From the IMG/VR virus record IMGVR_UViG_3300025646_000024, positions 1 to 64,000 of that record: DNA of 64,000 bases; one strand, given 5' to 3'. Positions within the stretch are counted from its first letter, which is position 1, and each line of letters opens with the position of its first letter. The translations under genes and the position numbers were made by a program. This DNA comes from a virus. Positions 5,460 to 26,864 of the stretch are shown in pieces. Under the pieces are notes generated by a model. The model had not been told where the DNA came from. It searched no databases and saw only the letters and a program-made list of their open reading frames with translations.

Positions 5460-5809
5460 TTCCTCTCATAAACAAGTGGATAATCGGATTTAAACCGATT
5501 AAGTATACTCCTTTCTGGTATTGGTATCGTCTATTATGTCATCAGGGGTATCGTCTTGATGACAGACATTTGTATGCAGACTTCTGGTATGAATTGAACT
5601 ATGGTTGGTGGACTATGGAGTATGATGCTTTCATCAATGGCCCAGGTACAGAAGAAGCTATGATGGGTATAAGTTCTCCTGATGACCTTCCAGAGACCAT
5701 CTACTTGACAGAAGAAGCTTTTGACTCTATGATGGAGAAGATCAATAATCCAGATCCACCCACACCATTTCTACGACAACTATTATCTCGACCTGCACCC
5801 TGGAATTAA
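5456..5809 (+). CDS. Hypothetical protein with DUF1778/TacA-antitoxin-like C-terminus
   Basis: C-terminal IYLTEEAFDSMMEKINNPDPPTPFLRQLL resembles the I.L..E.F..F...L.NPP.P...L..L tail of DUF1778 antitoxins. Confidence 0.45.
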   Translation: MIPLINKWIIGFKPIKYTPFWYWYRLLCHQGYRLDDRHLYADFWYELNYGWWTMEYDAFINGPGTEEAMMGISSPDDLPETIYLTEEAFDSMMEKINNPDPPTPFLRQLLSRPAPWN

Positions 5810-16935: not shown

Positions 16936-18481
16936 ACGATGAAGACTGGACTAACCTTAGCAACATGCACAAGGAGTTGACAAAAAACCATTTAGCAGCC
17001 TATGATACAGCATATCTTGAGAAGTACGCTGAGCTTCTTGCGAAATCACTTGAAGGGAAAGGAGACCCACATCATGACGGAGACTGATTATTCAATTTAT
17101 CTCTCACATACAAATGCTATGGAGAGAATGGATAAGTTCAATCAGCGTGCAGTGAAGGCTAAGACCTACAAAACAATGCACAAGAACTTTAGAATTGCTG
17201 ATGCTCTTTATGCAGAGTATCGTGAACTGATCGAAGAAGATCAAACCTATGTTACACTTTGTCTAGATCACCTTGAGGGTATTATCAATGATTGAAACCA
17301 CTACATTCCCAGTTGAAGTTAATGCTATTGCAGCTGTTGCTGGACTAGCTGGAGCACTTGTTGTGATTCTTTACGCATTCACACGGAACCATCAGTATGA
17401 AATGCGGAAACGTATGCGGAGCATCAGGAAGGCTAATGAGTCAGAGGTTGACATGCCCCCGCAAATCGGTTAATCTACTGGGGTAGTCAAGGGAACCAAC
17501 CCATGAACGACATCATCACACTCACGCCAGTCAAGCCCAGAACTCGTGAGGTGTATCATTACACCACCAGCCGCTGGGATTGGCAAGATGGTAATGTAAA
17601 CCAGATGTGGATTGAGCAAGTGGATGAAGACCAATACGTTGCCATCGCCCACAATCCAGCAAAAGGTGCTAGTATGGTGATGTCGAACCCCAGAGGCTAT
17701 CATGATACGCTACAATGGGTTCGACAGTTCTGTGGTTCCTTCTGCATTCTCTGATCATGAAAAACTACAAAGTTGTTGTAAAAACCTATGATGGTCTGTG
17801 TACTATCTGGTATGAAAAGTCTAAAGCAAAGTCTGCAACAGATTTGATTTGCCGTCGTGTGCATGAACAACTCTGTGGACTTAACATCAAGCAAATTGAA
17901 GTTTCTCTCTCGGTATGAAACCCTATCCACTTGGTATTGATAATCCGTACAGGATTATGCAAGAAATTGGTTCTACTAAATGGTCTATTTACAGACTAGA
18001 ACCATTCCAAAAAGTAGCAACATTCAAGTCACAATTCGATGCCTATGATGCTCGCAGGGCTCTACTCAAAGTAGAAGGTTACAATGCATGACTGCTAAGT
18101 ATATCATTACAGGCATGATTGGCGTTATTCTAATCATTGCCTGGAATGTGTTTCTAATTCATAGAGATACAGAAATGTTCAAGTCCTATTACTATCCAAA
18201 TTACCAACAAAATGAACTTCACTGATCTAAACTTTCAACCACATCCACATTACAAAGATGGTGTGCAAGCTAAGTACTTTTTCTCTAATGGGTATGGTGT
18301 ATCTGTAGTCAGGTTTCCTGGTTCCTATGGTTTCCAAAATGATCTGTATGAAGTAGCCATCCTGAAAGGTACAGAAGATAAATATGATCTAGTTTATGAT
18401 ACACCAATCACTGATGATGTATTAGGTCATCGTGATGAACAAGACATTAACAACATTCTAGAGGAAGTAGCAGCACTATGA
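16932..18481 (+). CDS. Cluster of short hypothetical proteins (16932-17087, 17074-17295, 17503-17754, 18212-18481 and others)
   Basis: Packed + strand ORFs. Confidence 0.55.
17421..17476 (+). promoter_or_regulatory. Sigma70-type promoter with degenerate box B
   Basis: GCATCAG-GAAGG-CTAATGA (17421-39), TTGACA (17448-53), 17 bp, TAATCT (17471-76). Confidence 0.65.
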
Positions 18482-19753: not shown

Positions 19754-19905
19754 ATTATTAACCTTATACTGTATGCCTCCGAGAATTATTAACTGTATAC
19801 TGTATGCCTCCGAGTGTGTCAAGTAAATTATTAACCTTATACTGTATGCCTCCGAGTGTGTCAAGTAAATTATTAACCTTATACTGTATGCCTCCGAGTG
19901 TGTCA
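19754..19905. repeat. Tandem direct repeat: four copies of a 30-bp core, last three at 42-bp period
   Basis: ATTATTAACCTTATACTGTATGCCTCCGAG at 19754, 19785 (2 substitutions), 19827, 19869; linker TGTGTCAAGTAA. Confidence 0.95.
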
Positions 19906-19950
19906 GAGAAAGTATCTGAAATGTTCGGAGGTGTAGCAGTCTTGGCCCGC

Positions 19951-19979
19951 AGTATATCACATCACGCCGAATTTGTCAA
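19951..19979 (-). promoter_or_regulatory. Near-consensus leftward sigma70 promoter
   Basis: Minus strand reads TTGACA-17 bp-TATACT; no credible ORF downstream. Confidence 0.8.
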
Positions 19980-20158
19980 GCCCCCCAGCCCAAAAAACCC
20001 ATAAGGACTCCAAATCATTCCGAGGCCACCAATAAGTATTACTAATATAAGCATTCCAAATCCCTCCGAGTCCATTCATTAGCATTACTAATCACAGACC
20101 CCTTGACATACCACCCAGGATCAGGTATATTACATATGTCACTGAGACACCCCAACCC

Positions 20159-20353
20159 ATGAACTACCCAGACGTGGTACAATTCTTCAGCCCATCCATG
20201 AAACAAGATGAGATGATTGAAGTATTAACAGAAGAACTTTATAGTAATAACTACAAACTAATGGAAATGATTATTGAGGAATATGTAACCTCTATGGATA
20301 GTGAACAGTTGACTCATTTAGAATGTTTTATCAATAACAACCTGACTGATTAG
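20159..20353 (+). CDS. Small acidic hypothetical protein
   Basis: ORF behind promoter 20103; its stop TAG lies inside box B at 20347. Confidence 0.65.
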   Translation: MNYPDVVQFFSPSMKQDEMIEVLTEELYSNNYKLMEMIIEEYVTSMDSEQLTHLECFINNNLTD

Positions 20354-20426
20354 TAACACTTATGGCTCAGGGGGTTGACTCCAGCCCCAATTCAGGCCAT
20401 ACTTGAATCGTTCACCACCTGAACCC

Positions 20427-20986
20427 ATGAAACTCACCACCGAGCAAACTCAAGACCTGCTGACTGCACATTGCTATCGAGTTATTGATAACATGGATGC
20501 AGATGATTTGTTTAGCTATGCTATGCAACTCATGATGCAATCTTTTGACAAGAATCCTGGCCAAGGTGATACAGATGTTGAAGGATTGATTTCTGACATC
20601 TGGATTGCAGAAGATGAGGATGATGATAGTGCTCAAGAGTTTATTGCTGGTGTTCTAGGTAATGAACTCGCAGAGGAGATTGTAAAGACTACTCAATTCT
20701 AATTATTAACAATGGAAACTAGCTTCGATTTCCCTGAACTAGAGACTGAATGGCAGGATGACATGTTAATTCCTGCAGATGATGACTATGAAAGTGAACA
20801 ACACTTTCAGCAGTTTATTAACTCCAACACTGATTATTGATTATTATGTCTAAAGCACTTCTGGTTTCAATGCTTCGCAAAGGTCAAACTGGCAATGAGA
20901 TTCTCACGATTCTTAACATGCTCGCCAGTGAAGATGAAGACATTAGTAATACTAATGAACCAACTCTAGATGAGATTGAGTTCTGA
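20427..20986 (+). CDS. Three-gene acidic module, copy 1 (20427-20702; 20712-20840, 42 aa; 20846-20986, 46 aa)
   Basis: MKLTTEQ..., METSFDFPEL...FINSNTDY, MSKALLVSMLRKG...DEIEF; paralogous to copy 2 with reading frames conserved. Confidence 0.75.
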
Positions 20987-21067
20987 TTAGTATTACTAAT
21001 CATTCAGGGGGTTGACAAGACCCTGAAAATCGGTTAAGTTACCTTTGTTCACTTCTGAACCACTCCA

Positions 21068-21512
21068 ATGGCTCTGATTCTCGACACCAGCAATCAGTAC
21101 AACTCTGTTGCAAACCATGACTACAAAATGACATGGTGTGCATCTTGGGTTGACCATTATAATTTCCTTGCAGGTATTAGCTTTAATACTGAAGCTGAAA
21201 CTGCAATGTATAAAGAAGAGATGATGGAATATCTCTGCTATGATGTCTGATTAGTATTACTAATCAATCGGGGGGTTGACACCTCAACCCCCACCTGCTA
21301 CATTATCAATGTTCACTACTGAACCCATGACCAACACTTTTGACCGTGATTCGCTGATTGAAACCTATGTTCAGCAGCTTATTGATGGTATGGACATGAA
21401 GACTATGGAGCGTATGGTTTATGATACCTTGATTGACAATCTTTCTTCCTATTCTGATGAAGAACTGATTACAGAGGTTGAAGAATACAATCCCGAACTG
21501 TTGGAGGATTGA
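21068..21512 (+). CDS. Two single-gene cassettes (21068-21250; about 21327-21512)
   Basis: Each has its own promoter and ends at the TGA of box B; the second resembles the N-terminus of the 20427/21590 family (L.....ID.MD). Confidence 0.7.
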
Positions 21513-21589
21513 TCAGCATTACTAATCAATCGGGGGGTTGACAGGGATCAATCCCCATGCCATACTTACATCGTTCACCACACAAGGCC

Positions 21590-22134
21590 ATGAACCTCAC
21601 TTCTGAACAGGTCAAAGATCTCTGTCAGGCACATTGTTATCGTGTCATTGAACAAATGAACCACGATGATTTAATTAGCTATGCTGTACAGATGATGTAC
21701 ATGTCATTTGAAAAGAATCCTGGTGATGGTGACATTGATGTTGAAATGTTGGTTTCTGACATCTATGTTGCTGAAGATGAAGATGATGATTCTGTGTATG
21801 AATTTGTTTCTGGCACAGTAGGTGAAGAGATTGCTGAACAAGTTATTAACTATCAATTCTGAATCATGGACACTTATGATTTCGCTGAACTTGAGGCTGA
21901 AGTATTTGACTGGCAGGATGATATGTTGATTCCTGCCGATGATGATGCTGAAGCTGACAAACATTTCAGCCAGTTTATTAACTCCAACACTGATTATTGA
22001 TTATTATGTCTACAGAAGTTCTGATTTCGATGCTTCGCAAGGGAAAGAATGGTGAGCAAATTCTCACTATTCTCGACATGATTACTGGTGAGGATGATAC
22101 TGCAGAGCCCACATCTGAAGAGATTGAGTTCTGA
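21590..22134 (+). CDS. Three-gene acidic module, copy 2 (21590-21862; 21866-22000, 44 aa; 22006-22134, 42 aa)
   Basis: MNLTSEQ..., MDTYDFAEL...FINSNTDY, MSTEVLISMLRKG...EEIEF. Confidence 0.75.
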
Positions 22135-22215
22135 TTAGTATTACTAATCATTCAAGGGGTTGACAAACTCAGCCCCATCCTGTAAATTATTAACCGTACA
22201 CCTGCTGAACACATC

Positions 22216-22479
22216 ATGGCAACTGCAATCGCTCCTGTACATCGTCAGTTTACTAAAGAGCAATCTAGTGCTATTCATTCTATTACTATCCCTGGTGATA
22301 GTAATGATGTTTTTATTAACTATCATAGCAATGCAGATAAAGTTTACAACTTCACTGCATCAGATAGTTACATTGAATTCCTAAGTGATCTTCTCACTAA
22401 TGATGAGATCCTGAAGAATGTTAGCATTGGTTCTACTATTGCTGATGGGCGACGGACTGAAGAACTGAAGTCTGTCTGA
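22216..22479 (+). CDS. KTSC-domain-like small protein
   Basis: SSAIHSI....V.INY......YNF......SIG pattern resembles KTSC (SS.I.SI.Y...L.V.F..G..Y.Y...S.G). Confidence 0.45.
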   Translation: MATAIAPVHRQFTKEQSSAIHSITIPGDSNDVFINYHSNADKVYNFTASDSYIEFLSDLLTNDEILKNVSIGSTIADGRRTEELKSV

Positions 22480-22602
22480 TAGAATCTATGGGGGGTGAGA
22501 TTCCCCCCTTTTCATTACATTATTACAGATTGTGACAGCTGAACTCATTGCAGCCCTGATCATGCTTAAACTGTTGAACACAGCCCATCGCAAACTCTCA
22601 CA

Positions 22603-23038
22603 ATGGATCCGATGATTTCTGTTCAGCCTATCAGCAAAAAGGCCAAAAACAGGTTCGCTAATCTAATGGAATCTTGCGAGCATTGTATTGTTGAACAACA
22701 CAAAGGAGATAAAGTCTTTCTGCGTAGTCTAAATGGCAGAAACTTCTTCTGGGTTAATGTACACCACGATCAGGATTGGCTGTTGGAGATGTAATTATTT
22801 CGGATTGTGAACATGGGGGCATCCAAGCCCCCAGCCATGCTGTAGGATTGATGAGTCAACCGCAAACGACACCGTGACCAGCCAAAACCCCTACGTTCAG
22901 CAGCTGCAAGCCCAGGGCAAGGAGCCCAGCAAGGCTGCTGCCCCTAAGCGGACCTTCCCTTGCACCATCGGTGCTCGGACCTTCCACACCGAGGAGCAGT
23001 ATCAGGAAGCCCTGCACGAGTTTCTGAACGGGTACTGA
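22603..23038 (+). CDS. Two single-gene cassettes (22603-22794; 22874-23038, GTG start, 54 aa)
   Basis: Each is preceded by box C and a -10 element (TAAACT 22567, TAGGAT 22843). Confidence 0.65.
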
Positions 23039-23113
23039 TAAGCAACGCTAATCAGTCGGGGGCTCCACGAGCCCCCACCAGCTGCTAGACTTTTCTCAGT
23101 TCACACCCAAGCC

Positions 23114-23782
23114 ATGAACTTCGCCCTCACCGCCATCAGCAGCAACGCTAAGACTGGCCCGATCCCCACCAGCACTAGCAGCCGTGAGACCTGCCCCAGC
23201 ACCTGCCCCTTTTACGACAAAGGGTGCTACGCTAAGTCTGGCCCCCAGAACATTCACTGGAAAAAGGTTACTGAAGGTGAGCGTGGTGTAAACTTTCAAG
23301 AGTTTACAACTGCAATCCGTAAGCTTCAGCGAGGCCAACTCTGGCGGCACAATGTATCTGGTGATCTGCCACACATTCTGGGTGACATTAACGCACCTAT
23401 GGTGGAAGCTCTCGCTGATGCAAACCGTGGCCGCAAAGGTTACACCTACACCCACCACATTCTGAATGATCATAACCTAAAGGTCATTCAGGAAGCTAAC
23501 AGCAAAGGCTTCACGATTAACGCTTCCACTGAAGACGTAGAGGTGGCTGATGCAGTGATGACAGAGCACGGTATTCCTGCTGTTGCTGTTGTCAAGTCTG
23601 ACAAAACAGATAGATTCTACAAAACAGAATCAGGTCGCAAAGTTGTCACCTGCCCCGCTACAATTCATGAGAATGTAACTTGTGCAACCTGTAAGCTTTG
23701 TGCAAAGTCTGACCGAGACTTTATCATTGCATTCCCTGCACATGGCAATGCAAAGAAAACAGTGAACGAGATTGTCGCCTAA
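23114..23782 (+). CDS. Cys-rich phage protein (GP88-like, possibly Fe-S binding)
   Basis: N.KTG...TCPSTCP....GCYA, RHNVSGD, YTYTH, NAS and C-terminal CPA....TCATCKLC motifs. Confidence 0.6.
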   Translation: MNFALTAISSNAKTGPIPTSTSSRETCPSTCPFYDKGCYAKSGPQNIHWKKVTEGERGVNFQEFTTAIRKLQRGQLWRHNVSGDLPHILGDINAPMVEALADANRGRKGYTYTHHILNDHNLKVIQEANSKGFTINASTEDVEVADAVMTEHGIPAVAVVKSDKTDRFYKTESGRKVVTCPATIHENVTCATCKLCAKSDRDFIIAFPAHGNAKKTVNEIVA

Positions 23783-23896
23783 AGTATAATTATTTCGGAT
23801 TGTGAACAATCGGGTCTGGGGCATCGCCAGCCCCCACCCGATGCTGTAGAATACGATCAAGCGAGGCAAGGGACCTCGCACAACCCACCCGAGACA

Positions 23897-26236
23897 ATGA
23901 CCAGCTCTGACCGTCTGACCCGTACCAGCATCCCCACCGTGGTGGCTGTTGCCATTGCCAAGGTCACTCTGCTGAAACCCCACGTTATCGGCAGGCACCG
24001 TGCACAGTGGCTGTTCGATCTGGCCACCAGTGAGACTGCTCTCAAGGAGGAGCGCAAGCTGGGCCGTAAGGCACTGCAGATCGCTGCCGATGCTGCTGGC
24101 CGCAGCGTGATCACCCTGGCTGATGGTCGCACCATCGGCAACCGAGTCTACAGCAAGGCCAGCAACCGCAGGCTAGTTCGCTGGAGCCAGGATCGCCCTA
24201 GCGCAGTCTGACAAGTGGCACAAGGGGGCTTGACAGCAAGCCCTTTTTTTGTCTTTTTTTATTAACTATTTTATGGCAGGGGGCGTGGCGACCATTTCAT
24301 CATCAGGCTTACCCCAGCCCTCTCTCGGTTGTGAAACTATCCTAGCACGGCACCAGCCCACTAGGACAGCTCCAAACCAGTTCAGCCACTGGCACAAGAC
24401 CCCTAGACTCTGGCCAGGATCTGTGCGATTCTATAAAGGTCAAACAAAGGCAACCCCATGAATCCCTTTCTCACTGATTCACAAGTGGAAGAACTGAATA
24501 CAATGGGTTACATTGAATTGACTGAAGAATTATTAAGCGTTATATTTAATACTACCAATGTAGTTTGGGAGAATGATATTCTGGTAGACAAGAATTATTA
24601 TCAATAATACAAAATTATTAACCGTAATAGGTAATACTTAACCATACATTCCCCCATACACATAGGGGCACAATGTATGATTAAAGCACACACCTAGGCC
24701 AGTCCAGAGACTGGCCACCAGCTGGCCCAGACCCCACCAGCCCACCTGCTATACTGATCTCAGTTCAGCCAAAGGCCATGATCGCCAACCACGCCACCGC
24801 ACAAGACTTCGCCAACTGGGAAGCCAAGGCCAAGGCCATGACCATGGCTGAGCTGCTATGGTCGGCACAGGATGCTCGCAAGGCCGAACAGGCGATGCGA
24901 GGCTGGAACCCCATCGCTGAGGGTCGCTACAGCGATGAGGCAAGCACCTATGGCGATGAGATCCGCCGCCGCAGGGCCAGAGCCTGAGCTGGCCCAGGGC
25001 CACCTGGCCCACTGGCACACTCCAAACCCCAGTGGGCCAGCTCCAAACCCGTCACAGTGTGACAATCCAAAAAGCTGCACAAGCCCCTGTTGCCAGCTGC
25101 CGCTTGGGCCTGCTAGTGTTGATCACGTACACCGCACTACAGCGATGCAACCCACCGTCACCCTGACCCTGACCGCTTGGGAGGCCGAGCAGCTGCGCCG
25201 CATGGCCTTCGACTCCAGTTCCTACTGGTTCGGCATCCTGCAGGAGGCATTCAACGACCCTGCCAACACCAGGGATCGGGAAGCCATTGAGCGCCTGTGG
25301 CGTCAAAGCGGGGCCATGGCCCAGCGCCTGGGTGAGCTGATCGGCTGATCAACCACGGGGCCACCATCTGGCCCCACCATGATGTACACTTAATCTCAAG
25401 CGGGCCGACAGGAGCCCGCACACCCCCCAGAGACAATGGCAAACGACATCGCCACCCTCGCCCTCGCCTACAAGCAGGCCACTGATGCCCTGAAGCTCGC
25501 CGAGCAGGCCAAAGCCGATGCCAGCCTGGCCTTGGTGGAAGCCATGCAGGCTGCCGAACAGGAGCGGGTTGAAACCCCTGCAGGCAAGGTCAGCCTGTGC
25601 CAGGGTCGCCGCACCGTTAAGGTCACTTGCAAAGCTTTGCAGGCCGAGATCAAGCTCCTACAGGAGCGGGCCGTCAGGACAGGCCGAGCCGTTGAAGCGG
25701 TGGGCAAACCCTACGTCATGATCCGCTGATCAACCATGGGGCAAGCTTGACGGCTTGCCCCTTTCTGCCCCATAATGGGGAAGTCCAAACGACACCCGAC
25801 CCATGGCCACGATCAACCCCATCGAAGCCGACTTCATCACCCATTGCATCGAGGTGTGGTGTAACGAGCTGCCGCAGATCGCTGGGCGTCCCGTGATGTT
25901 CACCACACAGGGCGAGCAGCCTGAGCAGGTGCTGCTGACTCATGATCAGATCGAAGCTCTGTACCTGCGGCTGCAGGCCCTGAAGTGAGCCCTACGGGGA
26001 GCCTACGGGCTCCCCTTCCTATCCACAACCACAACCACACACCGAGCATGTTTGAGACCCTCAGAGAGGCCACCATGGCCCGTGCAAACGATGCTGGCTG
26101 CATCCCATACCAAGACGCCCTAACCGAGGCCATCAGCCACGGTGCAGGCCAGGAGTTTATTGCCCTGTATGGGTCAGCCATCGCCTGGCCTATGGGTGTG
26201 GATGCTGGCGAGTGGCTGGCCTGGCTCGGTTACTGA
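23897..26236 (+). CDS. GC-rich single-gene cassettes (23897-24211, 24778-24987, 25145-25348, 25436-25729, 25803-25988, 26048-26236) plus AT-rich 24458-24607
   Basis: GC3-rich + strand ORFs, mostly starting 20-45 nt behind a -10 element. Confidence 0.65.
24224..24250. terminator. Rho-independent terminator overlapping a TTGACA
   Basis: GGGCTTG-ACAG-CAAGCCC then T7 and a second T7 run. Confidence 0.75.
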
Positions 26237-26408
26237 ATGTAACGGGGGAGCCAGTCTCCCCCATTGATCAGCGATACTGATCGATCAGCAGTGCTGATCA
26301 GTGGGCAGAGGCAGTATAAACGGCCCTTATGGGTCGCCGCCCCCCGTACCCGTGGAAAATTCTAAATACTCAAGCTATAAACCTTTACCAGCGACTTCGA
26401 TATATTCA

Positions 26409-26864
26409 ATGATTAAAAATAAAAAAATTTTGCCCACAAAATTTGACGGCTACTATGTTTCTGAAGACGGAAAAATTTTTACTGAGTGGCATTTAGTAAA
26501 TAATAATGGAAGATTTGGTTCAATCAGAGGAGAGCTGCGAGAAGTAAAATCTCATCCAAGAGGAGGATGTAATCCAAATGACAGATATTTAGCTGTAAAT
26601 ATTTCATTAAAAAATGACCAAGGAAAAACTATTAAGCAAATCAAATATTACTCACATAGACTCATAGCAGAGACTTTTATAGAAAACCCACAAAATTTGA
26701 AAGAAGTAGACCATATTGATGGAAACAAACAAAATAACTCAACAACAAATCTGAGGTGGGTAGATAGAAAAGAAAACCTAAAATGGATGATAGGAAATAC
26801 TTTTGGAAAAAATTTTCGACAAAAAAAATCCGAGAACCTTGTAGATTCTCGGAGAAAAAAATAA
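26409..26864 (+). CDS. HNH homing endonuclease (NUMOD4/HNH_3 type)
   Basis: YYVSEDG, HRLIAETFIENP....VDHIDGNKQNN...NLRW; ATG 26409 preferred to GTG 26301. Confidence 0.88.
   Translation: MIKNKKILPTKFDGYYVSEDGKIFTEWHLVNNNGRFGSIRGELREVKSHPRGGCNPNDRYLAVNISLKNDQGKTIKQIKYYSHRLIAETFIENPQNLKEVDHIDGNKQNNSTTNLRWVDRKENLKWMIGNTFGKNFRQKKSENLVDSRRKK

Follow-up and report, generated by a model that had tools for sequence, protein, structure and literature searches.

Does a cyanophage carry binding sites of the host carbon-fixation regulator in front of its own early promoters? This question is raised by a 19 bp dyad, TGATTAG-N5-CTAATCA (hereafter box B), that recurs in the 64,000 nucleotides of viral DNA analysed here (IMG/VR record IMGVR_UViG_3300025646_000024, positions 1 to 64,000; hereafter the window). 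The original prediction, made from the letters alone, held that the dyad matches the operator of the LysR regulator RbcR and that the phage has wired a block of early genes to it, or titrates the regulator with many sites.

Box B and its promoters

Three identical copies of the dyad (TGATTAGTATTACTAATCA) were found at 20984, 21248 and 22132, in agreement with the original description, and the word is absent from 100 dinucleotide shuffles. Over its full length it is a 9-1-9 palindrome. The core ATTAG-N5-CTAAT, allowing at most one mismatch, has 13 matches where 4.7 are expected, nine of them within 20030-23054. Variant boxes are located at 17421, 20076, 20347, 21510 and 23036, and weaker boxes at 20030, 20940 (inside an ORF), 19999, 25333, 26265, 26282 and 26314.

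Seven promoters had been reported to follow a box after 8-9 nt, and the coordinates bear this out. The gap from the end of the box to TTGAC is 8 nt in modules 1 and 2 (TTGAC at 17448 and 20103) and 9 nt in modules 3 to 7 (20375, 21012, 21276, 21538 and 22160). At all seven a -10 hexamer (TAnnnT or CATACT) is found 17 nt after the -35. Most box promoters have near-consensus -35 and -10 hexamers and perhaps do not need an activator.

All modules are on the plus strand. Module 1 (17421..17476) consists of box GCATCAGGAAGGCTAATGA at 17421-17439, TTGACA at 17448-17453 and TAATCT; its box scores 12.6 bits with the host matrix described below, and orthologous boxes are present in L122, L124, L127 and L281. 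Module 2 (20030..20131) has a weak distal box at 20030-20048 and a proximal box TCATTAGCATTACTAATCA at 20076-20094, followed by TTGACA and TATATT. In module 3 (20347..20403) the box TGATTAGTAACACTTATGG is followed by TTGACT, lying within a GGGG..CCCC hairpin, and by CATACT. Module 4 (20940..21040) combines the box inside an ORF at 20940-20958 with a perfect box at 20984-21002, TTGACA and TAAGTT. Module 5 (21248..21304) has a perfect box at 21248-21266, TTGACA within a hairpin at 21270-21292 with the arms GGGGGGTTGA and TCAACCCCC, and TACATT. Module 6 (21510..21566) has box TGATCAGCATTACTAATCA, TTGACA and CATACT, and module 7 (22132..22188) a perfect box at 22132-22150, TTGACA and TAAATT; the latter precedes ORF 22216-22479, which it is predicted to drive. 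Module 8 (23036..23091), upstream of the DUF7227 gene at 23114-23782, has box TGATAAGCAACGCTAATCA, then after 9 nt a degenerate -35, TCCACG, in the hairpin GGGGGCTC..GAGCCCCC, and after 16 nt TAGACT. Of all the boxes this one comes closest to the host dyad (23.2 bits), and it has an ortholog in L281. Box and -10 are in register at three promoters despite a degenerate -35.

Ten consecutive plus-strand ORFs of 42-93 amino acids, all with a pI of about 4.1, lie behind the box promoters at 20159..22134; three are DUF7326/phrog_1352 paralogs. A putative intrinsic terminator read from the sequence (22490..22512, plus strand; GGGGGG, 7 nt, CCCCCC, TTTT) closes the array after ORF 22216-22479. For the GC-rich segment at 22.8-26.4 kb a host origin was considered and rejected, as no DNA match was found in five host-type genomes.

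Further boxes have other arrangements. The minus-strand box TGATTTGGAGTCCTTATGG (19999..20017) is 19 nt before a leftward promoter, TTGACA (19979)-17-TATACT, an arrangement that recurs in L275 and L279. On the plus strand, in the element at 5667..5710, box GTATAAGTTCTCCTGATGA is likewise 19 nt before its promoter, TTGACA (5705)-17-TATGAT, one helical turn further out, and is kept in G001 (a complete related phage), L275 and L281. Three consecutive plus-strand dyads (26265-26283, 26282-26300 and 26314-26332) are located between a GC hairpin and an HNH endonuclease gene (ATG at 26410), with no clear promoter.

Conservation and spacing among phages

Eight positions are invariant in 39 distinct boxes (A3, T4, A6, G7 / C13, T14, A16, T17), and the third arm position, the spacer and the flanks are variable. 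The pattern of variation bears on whether the palindrome is a hairpin rather than a protein site, formed either in DNA as a cruciform or in RNA as a structure at the 3' end of the upstream transcript. Perfect copies can form a stem of 7-9 bp, positioned in the 3' UTR of the upstream ORF beside the GC hairpin. However, only 26% of the 39 distinct boxes have complementary bases at the mirrored positions 5 and 15, and about 30% have them for positions 1 and 2; each invariant position, moreover, holds one particular base and not just any complementary pair. As the arms are unequal and there are no compensating changes, a hairpin role was rejected as very improbable.

The distance from box to TTGAC was recorded in 905 kb of phage DNA. 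It is 8 nt in 21 cases, 9 nt in 32, 19-20 nt in seven and 31 nt in two, and intermediate distances do not occur in this DNA; the chance per offset is 0.0015. Together with the 41 nt seen in hosts (see below), these distances are helically phased. The same arrangement is found in cyanomyoviruses with a UvsW identity down to 49-58% and with unrelated flanks.

The box is not a universal cyanomyovirus feature, as a scan of Syn9, P-SSM2 and S-RIM8 gave none; S-PM2 and DSL-LC03 gave one each. Nor is it a standard component of early promoters: in G001 it is missing from the majority of TTGACA promoters, and dozens of other promoters of sigma70-like type in that phage do without it. An IMG/VR scan that used just the 14-base palindrome returned chance singletons for the most part, and the informative matches were those followed by TTGAC.

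The dyad at host promoters

A dyad of the form T(G/C)ATnAG-N5-CTTAT(C/G)A is present 116-121 nt upstream of csoS1 in 35/35 Cyanobiaceae genomes. In front of the csoS1-cbbLS operon it is conserved as a block, with CTTGACG following 41 nt later. The search made no use of the flanking T, G and C, A positions, which nevertheless agree between host and phage. Each host genome has 2-4 matches to GATNAG-N5-CTNATC, compared with 0-1 for a reversed control. In three Cyanobium-type genomes the cso site is among these matches, and further ones lie upstream of psbA and of a cmpA/nrtA-like gene.

A weight-matrix comparison with host upstream regions had been proposed along with the original prediction. A matrix built from host sites only gave 12 phage matches of at least 12 bits against 0.7 in shuffles (17-fold), and the top phage matches are the boxes, which are thus recovered from host information alone. 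The two versions are not identical: the best phage copies read ATTAG/CTAAT and the likely hosts ATAAG/CTTAT. The host cso dyad is centred near -86 and the phage box near -54, counted from predicted starts in both, and the difference of 32-33 nt equals three helical turns.

We know of no published RbcR operator for alpha-cyanobacteria, and the dyad at 35/35 cso promoters would be a sharply defined candidate. In Nostocales the dyad is also found upstream of psbA; PacR (= rbcR) has been reported to bind psbA3 (PMC12052932). A review gives the RbcR motif as ATTA(G/A)-N5-(C/T)TAAT (PMC13249358, citing Bolay 2022). The original prediction had stated this motif correctly, and the claimed fit of the core ATTAG-N5-CTAAT to it holds, the three best phage copies matching exactly. 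In all, the motif, which contains T-N11-A, is matched exactly at 20078, 20942, 20986, 21250 and 22134. Box B and the RbcR/PacR operator thus have the same 5-5-5 dyad, of the class found at the host RuBisCO/carboxysome operon (35/35) and at Nostocales psbA promoters. They differ in that box B, a predicted site, is on a phage rather than the host chromosome, has its centre near -54, occurs in up to about ten copies in one array, and has an extended 7-5-7 form with TG..CA flanks and a free third arm position.

The candidate regulator

Exactly one LysR gene (PF00126) is present in each of four host-type genomes checked (G002-G005). Its product is a LysR-family protein of full length, for which CbbR is one of the best models, below cut-off; the best PDB match is 5Y2V, 'Rubisco operon transcriptional regulator', and NCBIfam and cluster searches return generic LysR names only. 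In the literature on MED4 the single LysR gene is named RbcR. We infer that the single host LysR is a putative RbcR of the Sll0998/All3953 class. A dyad near this gene, as would suit autoregulation, was not found within 1.5 kb in the four genomes.

That no cognate phage regulator is visible nearby, as first stated, agrees with our searches: Pfam and PHROGs placed the array ORFs in families of unknown function and returned no HTH family. A DNA-binding protein among these neighbouring ORFs, which are acidic throughout, is thus an improbable candidate. A faint match of DUF7326 to Sigma70_r2 (E = 0.048) was set aside. A phage-encoded LysR was rejected, as the complete relative G001 has no LysR HTH (PF00126). 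To our knowledge, NtcA (GTA-N8-TAC), LexA, the Fur box, IHF and the UP element all fail to fit the invariant AT-AG/CT-AT letters and the spacing.

A protein other than RbcR might still bind the dyad, either an unrecognised phage factor or a different host factor. A phage factor could autoregulate the early array and also block the host carboxysome operon. In favour of this, small dimeric phage regulators typically have perfect palindromes like the present 9-1-9 one as their sites, no function has been assigned to many of the small ORFs of the phage, and binding of RbcR to the host dyad is itself deduced. Against such a protein stand the searches above and the strongly acidic, not DNA-binding-like character of the ten ORFs behind the boxes, together with the fit to the published RbcR motif. 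In addition, host cso promoters, those of Prochlorococcus included, have the dyad without exception, and it occurs at Nostocales psbA, so it predates any one phage protein. We consider another binding protein unlikely.

Promoter cassettes with built-in stop codons

In six copies the stop codon of the upstream ORF is supplied by box bases 1-3 (TGA) or 5-7 (TAG). The ORFs ended in this way are 20159-20353 (TAG, module 3), 20837-20986 (TGA, perfect box of module 4), 21068-21250 (TGA, module 5), 21276-21512, 21997-22134 and 22874-23038. Such an upstream stop in an AT-rich tract just before a sigma70-like -35/-10 is a property of the PeSLs, the promoter-early stem-loop cassettes of T4-like phages (Arbiol 2010, PMC2839356; Comeau 2014, PMC4122927). 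Further likenesses are a G-run/C-run (GGGG..CCCC) stem-loop overlapping the -35, such as the hairpin of module 5, and a hyperplastic region in which small ORFans are flanked by the element and differ between close relatives, which gain and lose cassettes at breakpoints that lie within it. For cassette 21068-21250 the identity to L125, L126 and L128 is 92-94%, compared with 72-83% in the flanks, and L122, L124 and L127 lack this cassette; the breakpoints are in the box/promoter. The C-run of the promoter spacer is kept and the loop is variable among relatives, and the stem-loop is also present at many G001 promoters without a box.

PeSLs have been described from coliphage, Yersinia and Vibrio phages, whereas the present virus is a cyanophage; a low PeSL density has been noted for the cyanophage S-PM2 (PMC4503421). 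A subset of the present cassettes has a strict dyad instead of a loose AT-rich tract, and the cassettes have no evident Shine-Dalgarno. Terminator activity and mini-circle formation are further, experimental features of PeSLs (PMC2839356). As judged from the shared anatomy, box B makes up the upstream portion of promoter/stem-loop cassettes of PeSL-like type that flank shuffled small acidic early genes, and the data are evidence for putative PeSL-type shuffling cassettes in cyanomyoviruses. The cassette nature, which was missed in the original prediction, would explain the near-identity of the copies and the built-in stop codons. The three identical copies are partly due to duplication, since 20403-20986 and 21557-22134 are paralogous three-gene blocks; the box is also retained before unrelated genes and in distant phages, beyond the duplicated blocks.

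The box could then be nothing more than the AT-rich upstream part of such a cassette, serving as UP-like element, stop-codon donor or crossover site, its resemblance to the host dyad fortuitous and its copies alike through duplication and recombination. The point-by-point agreement with PeSLs, the identity of 21068-21250 exceeding that of its flanks, the paralogous blocks and the supply of TGA and TAG stops all suit this explanation. It does not account for eight invariant positions in 39 distinct boxes whose spacers and flanks vary, nor for a dyad and a distance that recur unchanged in distant phages whose flanks are unrelated. In G001 the box is missing from most GGGG-TTGACA-CCCC promoters and is thus not a general cassette component, and the 17-fold excess with the host-only matrix and the helically phased distances also argue against it. 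We regard a cassette part and nothing else as rather unlikely, slightly less so than another binding protein.

Position of the box and proposed mechanism

The virus infects freshwater picocyanobacteria, and about ten of its early promoters are preceded by a host-type dyad. That box B serves host RbcR as an operator near -54, acting as an upstream activator site, is a reading to which we give an even chance. The link to the host carbon regulator first proposed is supported in part, by the same dyad class at 35/35 cso operons and by the single LysR in four genomes; the position does not support it. RbcR sites of Synechocystis are reported at about -90 (activating) and about -10 (repressing) (PMC13249358), whereas the phage box, from its 8-9 nt gap to the -35, is centred at about -54, at neither of these. 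Also counting against the reading are the differing arms of the phage and host dyads, the near-consensus hexamers of most box promoters, the many promoters of G001 and the other cyanomyoviruses with few boxes or none, and the result at the host LysR gene.

The mechanism we propose is as follows. Box B would be an RbcR/PacR (CbbR-type LysR) operator, of the dyad class of the host carboxysome/RuBisCO promoter, which the phage would have built into PeSL-like early-promoter cassettes. The order within a cassette is an upstream stop in the dyad, 8-9 nt, the -35 TTGACA in a GGGG..CCCC stem-loop, 17 nt, the -10, a short leader and ATG. Host RbcR would bind the box on the same helix face as at its own promoter and help RNA polymerase. 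Binding may raise expression of the acidic early proteins, or tie it to the carbon and light state of the host. The GC stem-loop and the repeated cassette may also terminate upstream transcription and provide the places where crossovers shuffle genes, as PeSLs do. Somewhat more tentatively, several T4-like cyanophage lineages may have copied the operator of their hosts' only LysR (RbcR), the master activator of carboxysome and RuBisCO genes, to a helically phased early-promoter position, so that the first wave of phage expression would read the carbon/photosynthetic state of the host; by mass action the sites might in addition draw RbcR away from the carbon-fixation operon of the host.

This last effect might even be the main one. 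RbcR would then bind, and the roughly ten sites in each genome, their number raised further by replication, would act as a decoy that soaks up the only LysR of the host and lowers carboxysome/RuBisCO transcription. The number of sites, including the three tandem dyads at 26265-26332 without a clear promoter, and the inhibition of CO2 fixation by cyanophages noted in PMC10976474 are consistent with this. A decoy has no need, however, of a fixed 8-9 nt register with the -35 or of helical phasing. RuBisCO and carboxysomes are also long-lived relative to an infection cycle, and we consider a decoy role improbable.

Relation to known host control of cyanophage promoters

For the RbcR reading there is a precedent, as host PhoB binds cyanophage promoters (P-SSM2 pstS; S-PM2d, PMC10976474). 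In our literature search PhoB sites were the only case of host regulators experimentally tied to cyanophage promoters, and searching full texts for RbcR in connection with cyanophage gave nothing relevant. In both systems phage promoters contain a site, for box B a predicted one, of a host factor that would make the phage genes respond to a nutrient signal of the host. The regulator and signal differ, being phosphate for PhoB and carbon/photosynthesis for box B, and box B is on early ORFan cassettes, not metabolic or replication genes, with a far more regular spacing. PhoB binding is experimental, whereas box B binding is predicted, and the authors of that work warn that boxes predicted in phage genomes often fail experimentally (PMC10976474).

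For the biology of these phages the matter is of consequence. Cyanophages redirect host carbon metabolism and need light. If RbcR binds the boxes, early phage transcription would be coupled to the signal for carboxysome/RuBisCO synthesis in Prochlorococcus, Synechococcus and Cyanobium. This would offer a concrete route by which the outcome of infection may depend on CO2 and light.

Phage and host

The window covers the first 64 kb of a virus fragment of 80 kb from IMG/VR, and its weak DNA matches are Synechococcus T4-like phages. A relative, G001, is complete (172 kb, with terminal repeats). The psbA protein of G001 shares 91-93% identity with its counterparts in Cyanobium and Synechococcus, both freshwater and marine, which makes a Cyanobiaceae picocyanobacterium the most probable host. 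Positions 22000-26000 form a GC-rich island (0.48-0.57 vs about 0.35-0.40 elsewhere) containing a DUF7227 gene and several ORFs; no DNA match to it was found in five host-type genomes.

Box B and its promoters

Box B is a palindrome of the type TGATTAG-N5-CTAATCA. The identical copies, the variants and the 8-9 nt spacing before TTGAC described in the original prediction were all reproduced. The 19-mer TGATTAGTATTACTAATCA, a 9-1-9 palindrome, is found at 20984, 21248 and 22132 and is absent from shuffles; variants are found at 17421, 20076, 20347, 21510 and 23036. At each box, the box end is followed by 8 or 9 nt, TTGAC, 17 nt and the -10 (seven TTGAC promoters, and 23036 with a degenerate -35). 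In six cases the ORF upstream terminates at the TGA or TAG of the box.

A further box (19999-20017) precedes the leftward promoter at 19979 by 19 nt, and a 42-bp tandem repeat at 19754-19979 carries stacked minus-strand TTGACA promoters. At 26236-26410 a GC hairpin is followed by three dyads and an HNH endonuclease gene. Two dyads overlap, 17 bp apart, and the third, 32 bp further, contains an apparent TATAAA late-promoter word; this arrangement is kept in relatives L275, L279 and L280.

A position-by-position comparison of 39 distinct boxes next to promoters, taken from at least eight phages, shows A3, T4, A6, G7 and C13, T14, A16, T17 to be invariant, with variation at arm position three and in the five central bases. 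A hairpin is disfavoured: just 26% of these boxes can pair at the mirrored positions 5/15, and no compensating changes between the arms were seen. The pattern of letters suggests a protein site rather than a hairpin.

Cassettes carrying the box

The box is one component of a larger repeated module with a short leader, in which the -35 sits within a G-run/C-run hairpin (e.g. 21270-21292). Behind the boxes lie ten consecutive tiny ORFs (20159-22134), all with a pI of about 4.1, including three DUF7326/phrog_1352 paralogs and a duplicated three-gene block (20403-20986 and 21557-22134). These acidic products have the look of proteins made early for host takeover or mimicry. Several leaders open with the inverted repeat GTTCAC-N2-4-TGAACC (21043-21060, 21308-21325, 20408-20425), right at the predicted start just before ATG; this repeat may act in translation or as another operator.

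Promoter-early stem-loops (PeSLs) of other T4-like phages consist of an AT-rich tract with a stop codon, a sigma70-like promoter and a GGGG..CCCC stem-loop, sometimes overlapping the -35, and are located around ORFans in hyperplastic regions (PMC2839356, PMC4122927). The box cassettes share this anatomy, and their content likewise varies between close relatives. Three relatives match cassette 21068-21250 at 92-94% identity but its flanks at only 72-83%, and three others lack it; the breakpoints fall in the box/promoter. These breakpoints would fit a less likely rival explanation, that box B is purely a cassette or recombination element; the invariant letters speak against it.

G001 has many GGGG-TTGACA-CCCC promoters genome-wide, and still carries the box in only one cluster and a few singletons. 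The box is therefore an extra found on some cassettes and no general promoter part. Most strong sigma70-like promoters of G001 (L130-L138; e.g. 101743, 102743, 107264, 129401) place TTGACA in the loop between a G-run and a C-run that form a hairpin; in marine relatives a T-run comes after the hairpin, giving a terminator whose loop holds the -35 (L284:9920). From such hairpin-looped promoters, PeSL-like elements seem widespread in cyanomyoviruses.

The dyad in host genomes

The RbcR motif given in the original prediction, ATTA(G/A)-N5-(C/T)TAAT, proved correct, being given in this form in PMC13249358 (citing Bolay 2022). According to the same paper, RbcR in Synechocystis activates when bound about 90 nt before the start and represses when bound about 10 nt before it.

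Host-type genomes were reached through psbA, and the regions upstream of RuBisCO genes were inspected. A dyad lies 117-121 nt before csoS1 of the carboxysome/RuBisCO (cso) operon in 5/5 of the first genomes, and upstream of csoS1 in 35/35 genomes of a wider sample including small Prochlorococcus-sized ones, with the consensus T(G/C)ATaAG-N5-CTTAT(C/G)A. Host dyad and phage box also agree at the flanking T, G and C, A, which the search pattern did not include. In the host alignment the dyad is a conserved block followed by 41 nt, CTTGACG, 17 nt, CATTGT and a conserved leader, a layout from which its position would be about -86, not far from that published for activation. Host genomes contain only 2-4 occurrences each of the phage-derived pattern GATNAG-N5-CTNATC; one site is the cso site in three Cyanobium-type genomes, and others lie upstream of a cmpA/nrtA-like gene and psbA.

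In a conserved layout, the Cyanobiaceae cso promoters (L219-L223, L240-L269; about 200 nt upstream of csoS1) run from an AACAGT block through the dyad and, about 16 nt after it, a 'gTGATc' half-site to CTTGACG, 17 nt, CATTGT and the leader GAACATTCCA. Together, dyad and half-site may make up a full LysR site pair, one for recognition and one for activation.

A single LysR HTH gene was found in each of four host genomes, and none in the complete phage G001. The best solved relative of the host protein is named 'Rubisco operon transcriptional regulator', and the Prochlorococcus literature calls the gene RbcR. No dyad was found within 1.5 kb of this gene in the four genomes. Binding of box B by another protein than RbcR is a less likely rival explanation.

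A dozen beta-cyanobacteria carry the dyad 98-135 nt upstream of psbA. In Calothrix, Microcoleus, Nostoc, Brasilonema and others (L142, L143, L144, L151, L155, L171, L173, L179, L199) it scores 15-19 bits at a distance of 116-135 nt. This fits the direct binding of the psbA3 promoter reported in Anabaena for PacR, the rbcR product (PMC12052932). The phage's own psbA (L129) has no dyad upstream.

Host matrix and promoter spacing

In order to avoid circularity, a matrix from 34 distinct host sites only was run over the phage. At 12 bits or more it gave 12 matches in the window phage vs 0.7 in shuffles. The best matches are the boxes, the first being 23036 (23.2 bits), where the -35 is degenerate, yet box and -10 stay in register, as expected of an activator-dependent promoter. 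Most box promoters are already strong-looking.

Distant cyanomyoviruses (475 kb, UvsW only 49-58% identical) gave 14 matches vs 3 in shuffles, and 13 of the 14 have TTGAC at the same distance as in the window phage, within unrelated flanks. One box-type site each was found in S-PM2 and DSL-LC03, and none in Syn9, P-SSM2 and S-RIM8. In 905 kb pooled, TTGAC follows the box after 8 nt (n=21), 9 nt (n=32), 19-20 nt (n=7) or 31 nt (n=2), and at no other distance as far as 40 nt; any one offset has a chance of 0.0015. Together with the 41 nt of the host, these distances step by about 10.5 nt, i.e. the same helix face. Such stepping is typical of upstream activator sites, and box B probably acts as one. 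In a less likely rival explanation, box B is a decoy for RbcR, the titration alternative of the original prediction; such a decoy would need no fixed spacing.

Possible regulation by the host

The proposed wiring of phage early genes to RbcR stands in part. It is favoured by the dyad shared with the host cso promoter, the single LysR in the four host genomes and the lack of one in G001; against it, most box promoters look strong, and the phage box would lie near -54, which is neither of the two positions reported in Synechocystis. A full-text literature search gave no paper linking cyanophages and RbcR. Control of cyanophage genes by host PhoB is an experimental precedent, whose authors caution that predicted boxes often fail (PMC10976474). 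The reading that fits box B best is an RbcR-type operator that has been grafted onto early cassettes resembling PeSLs.
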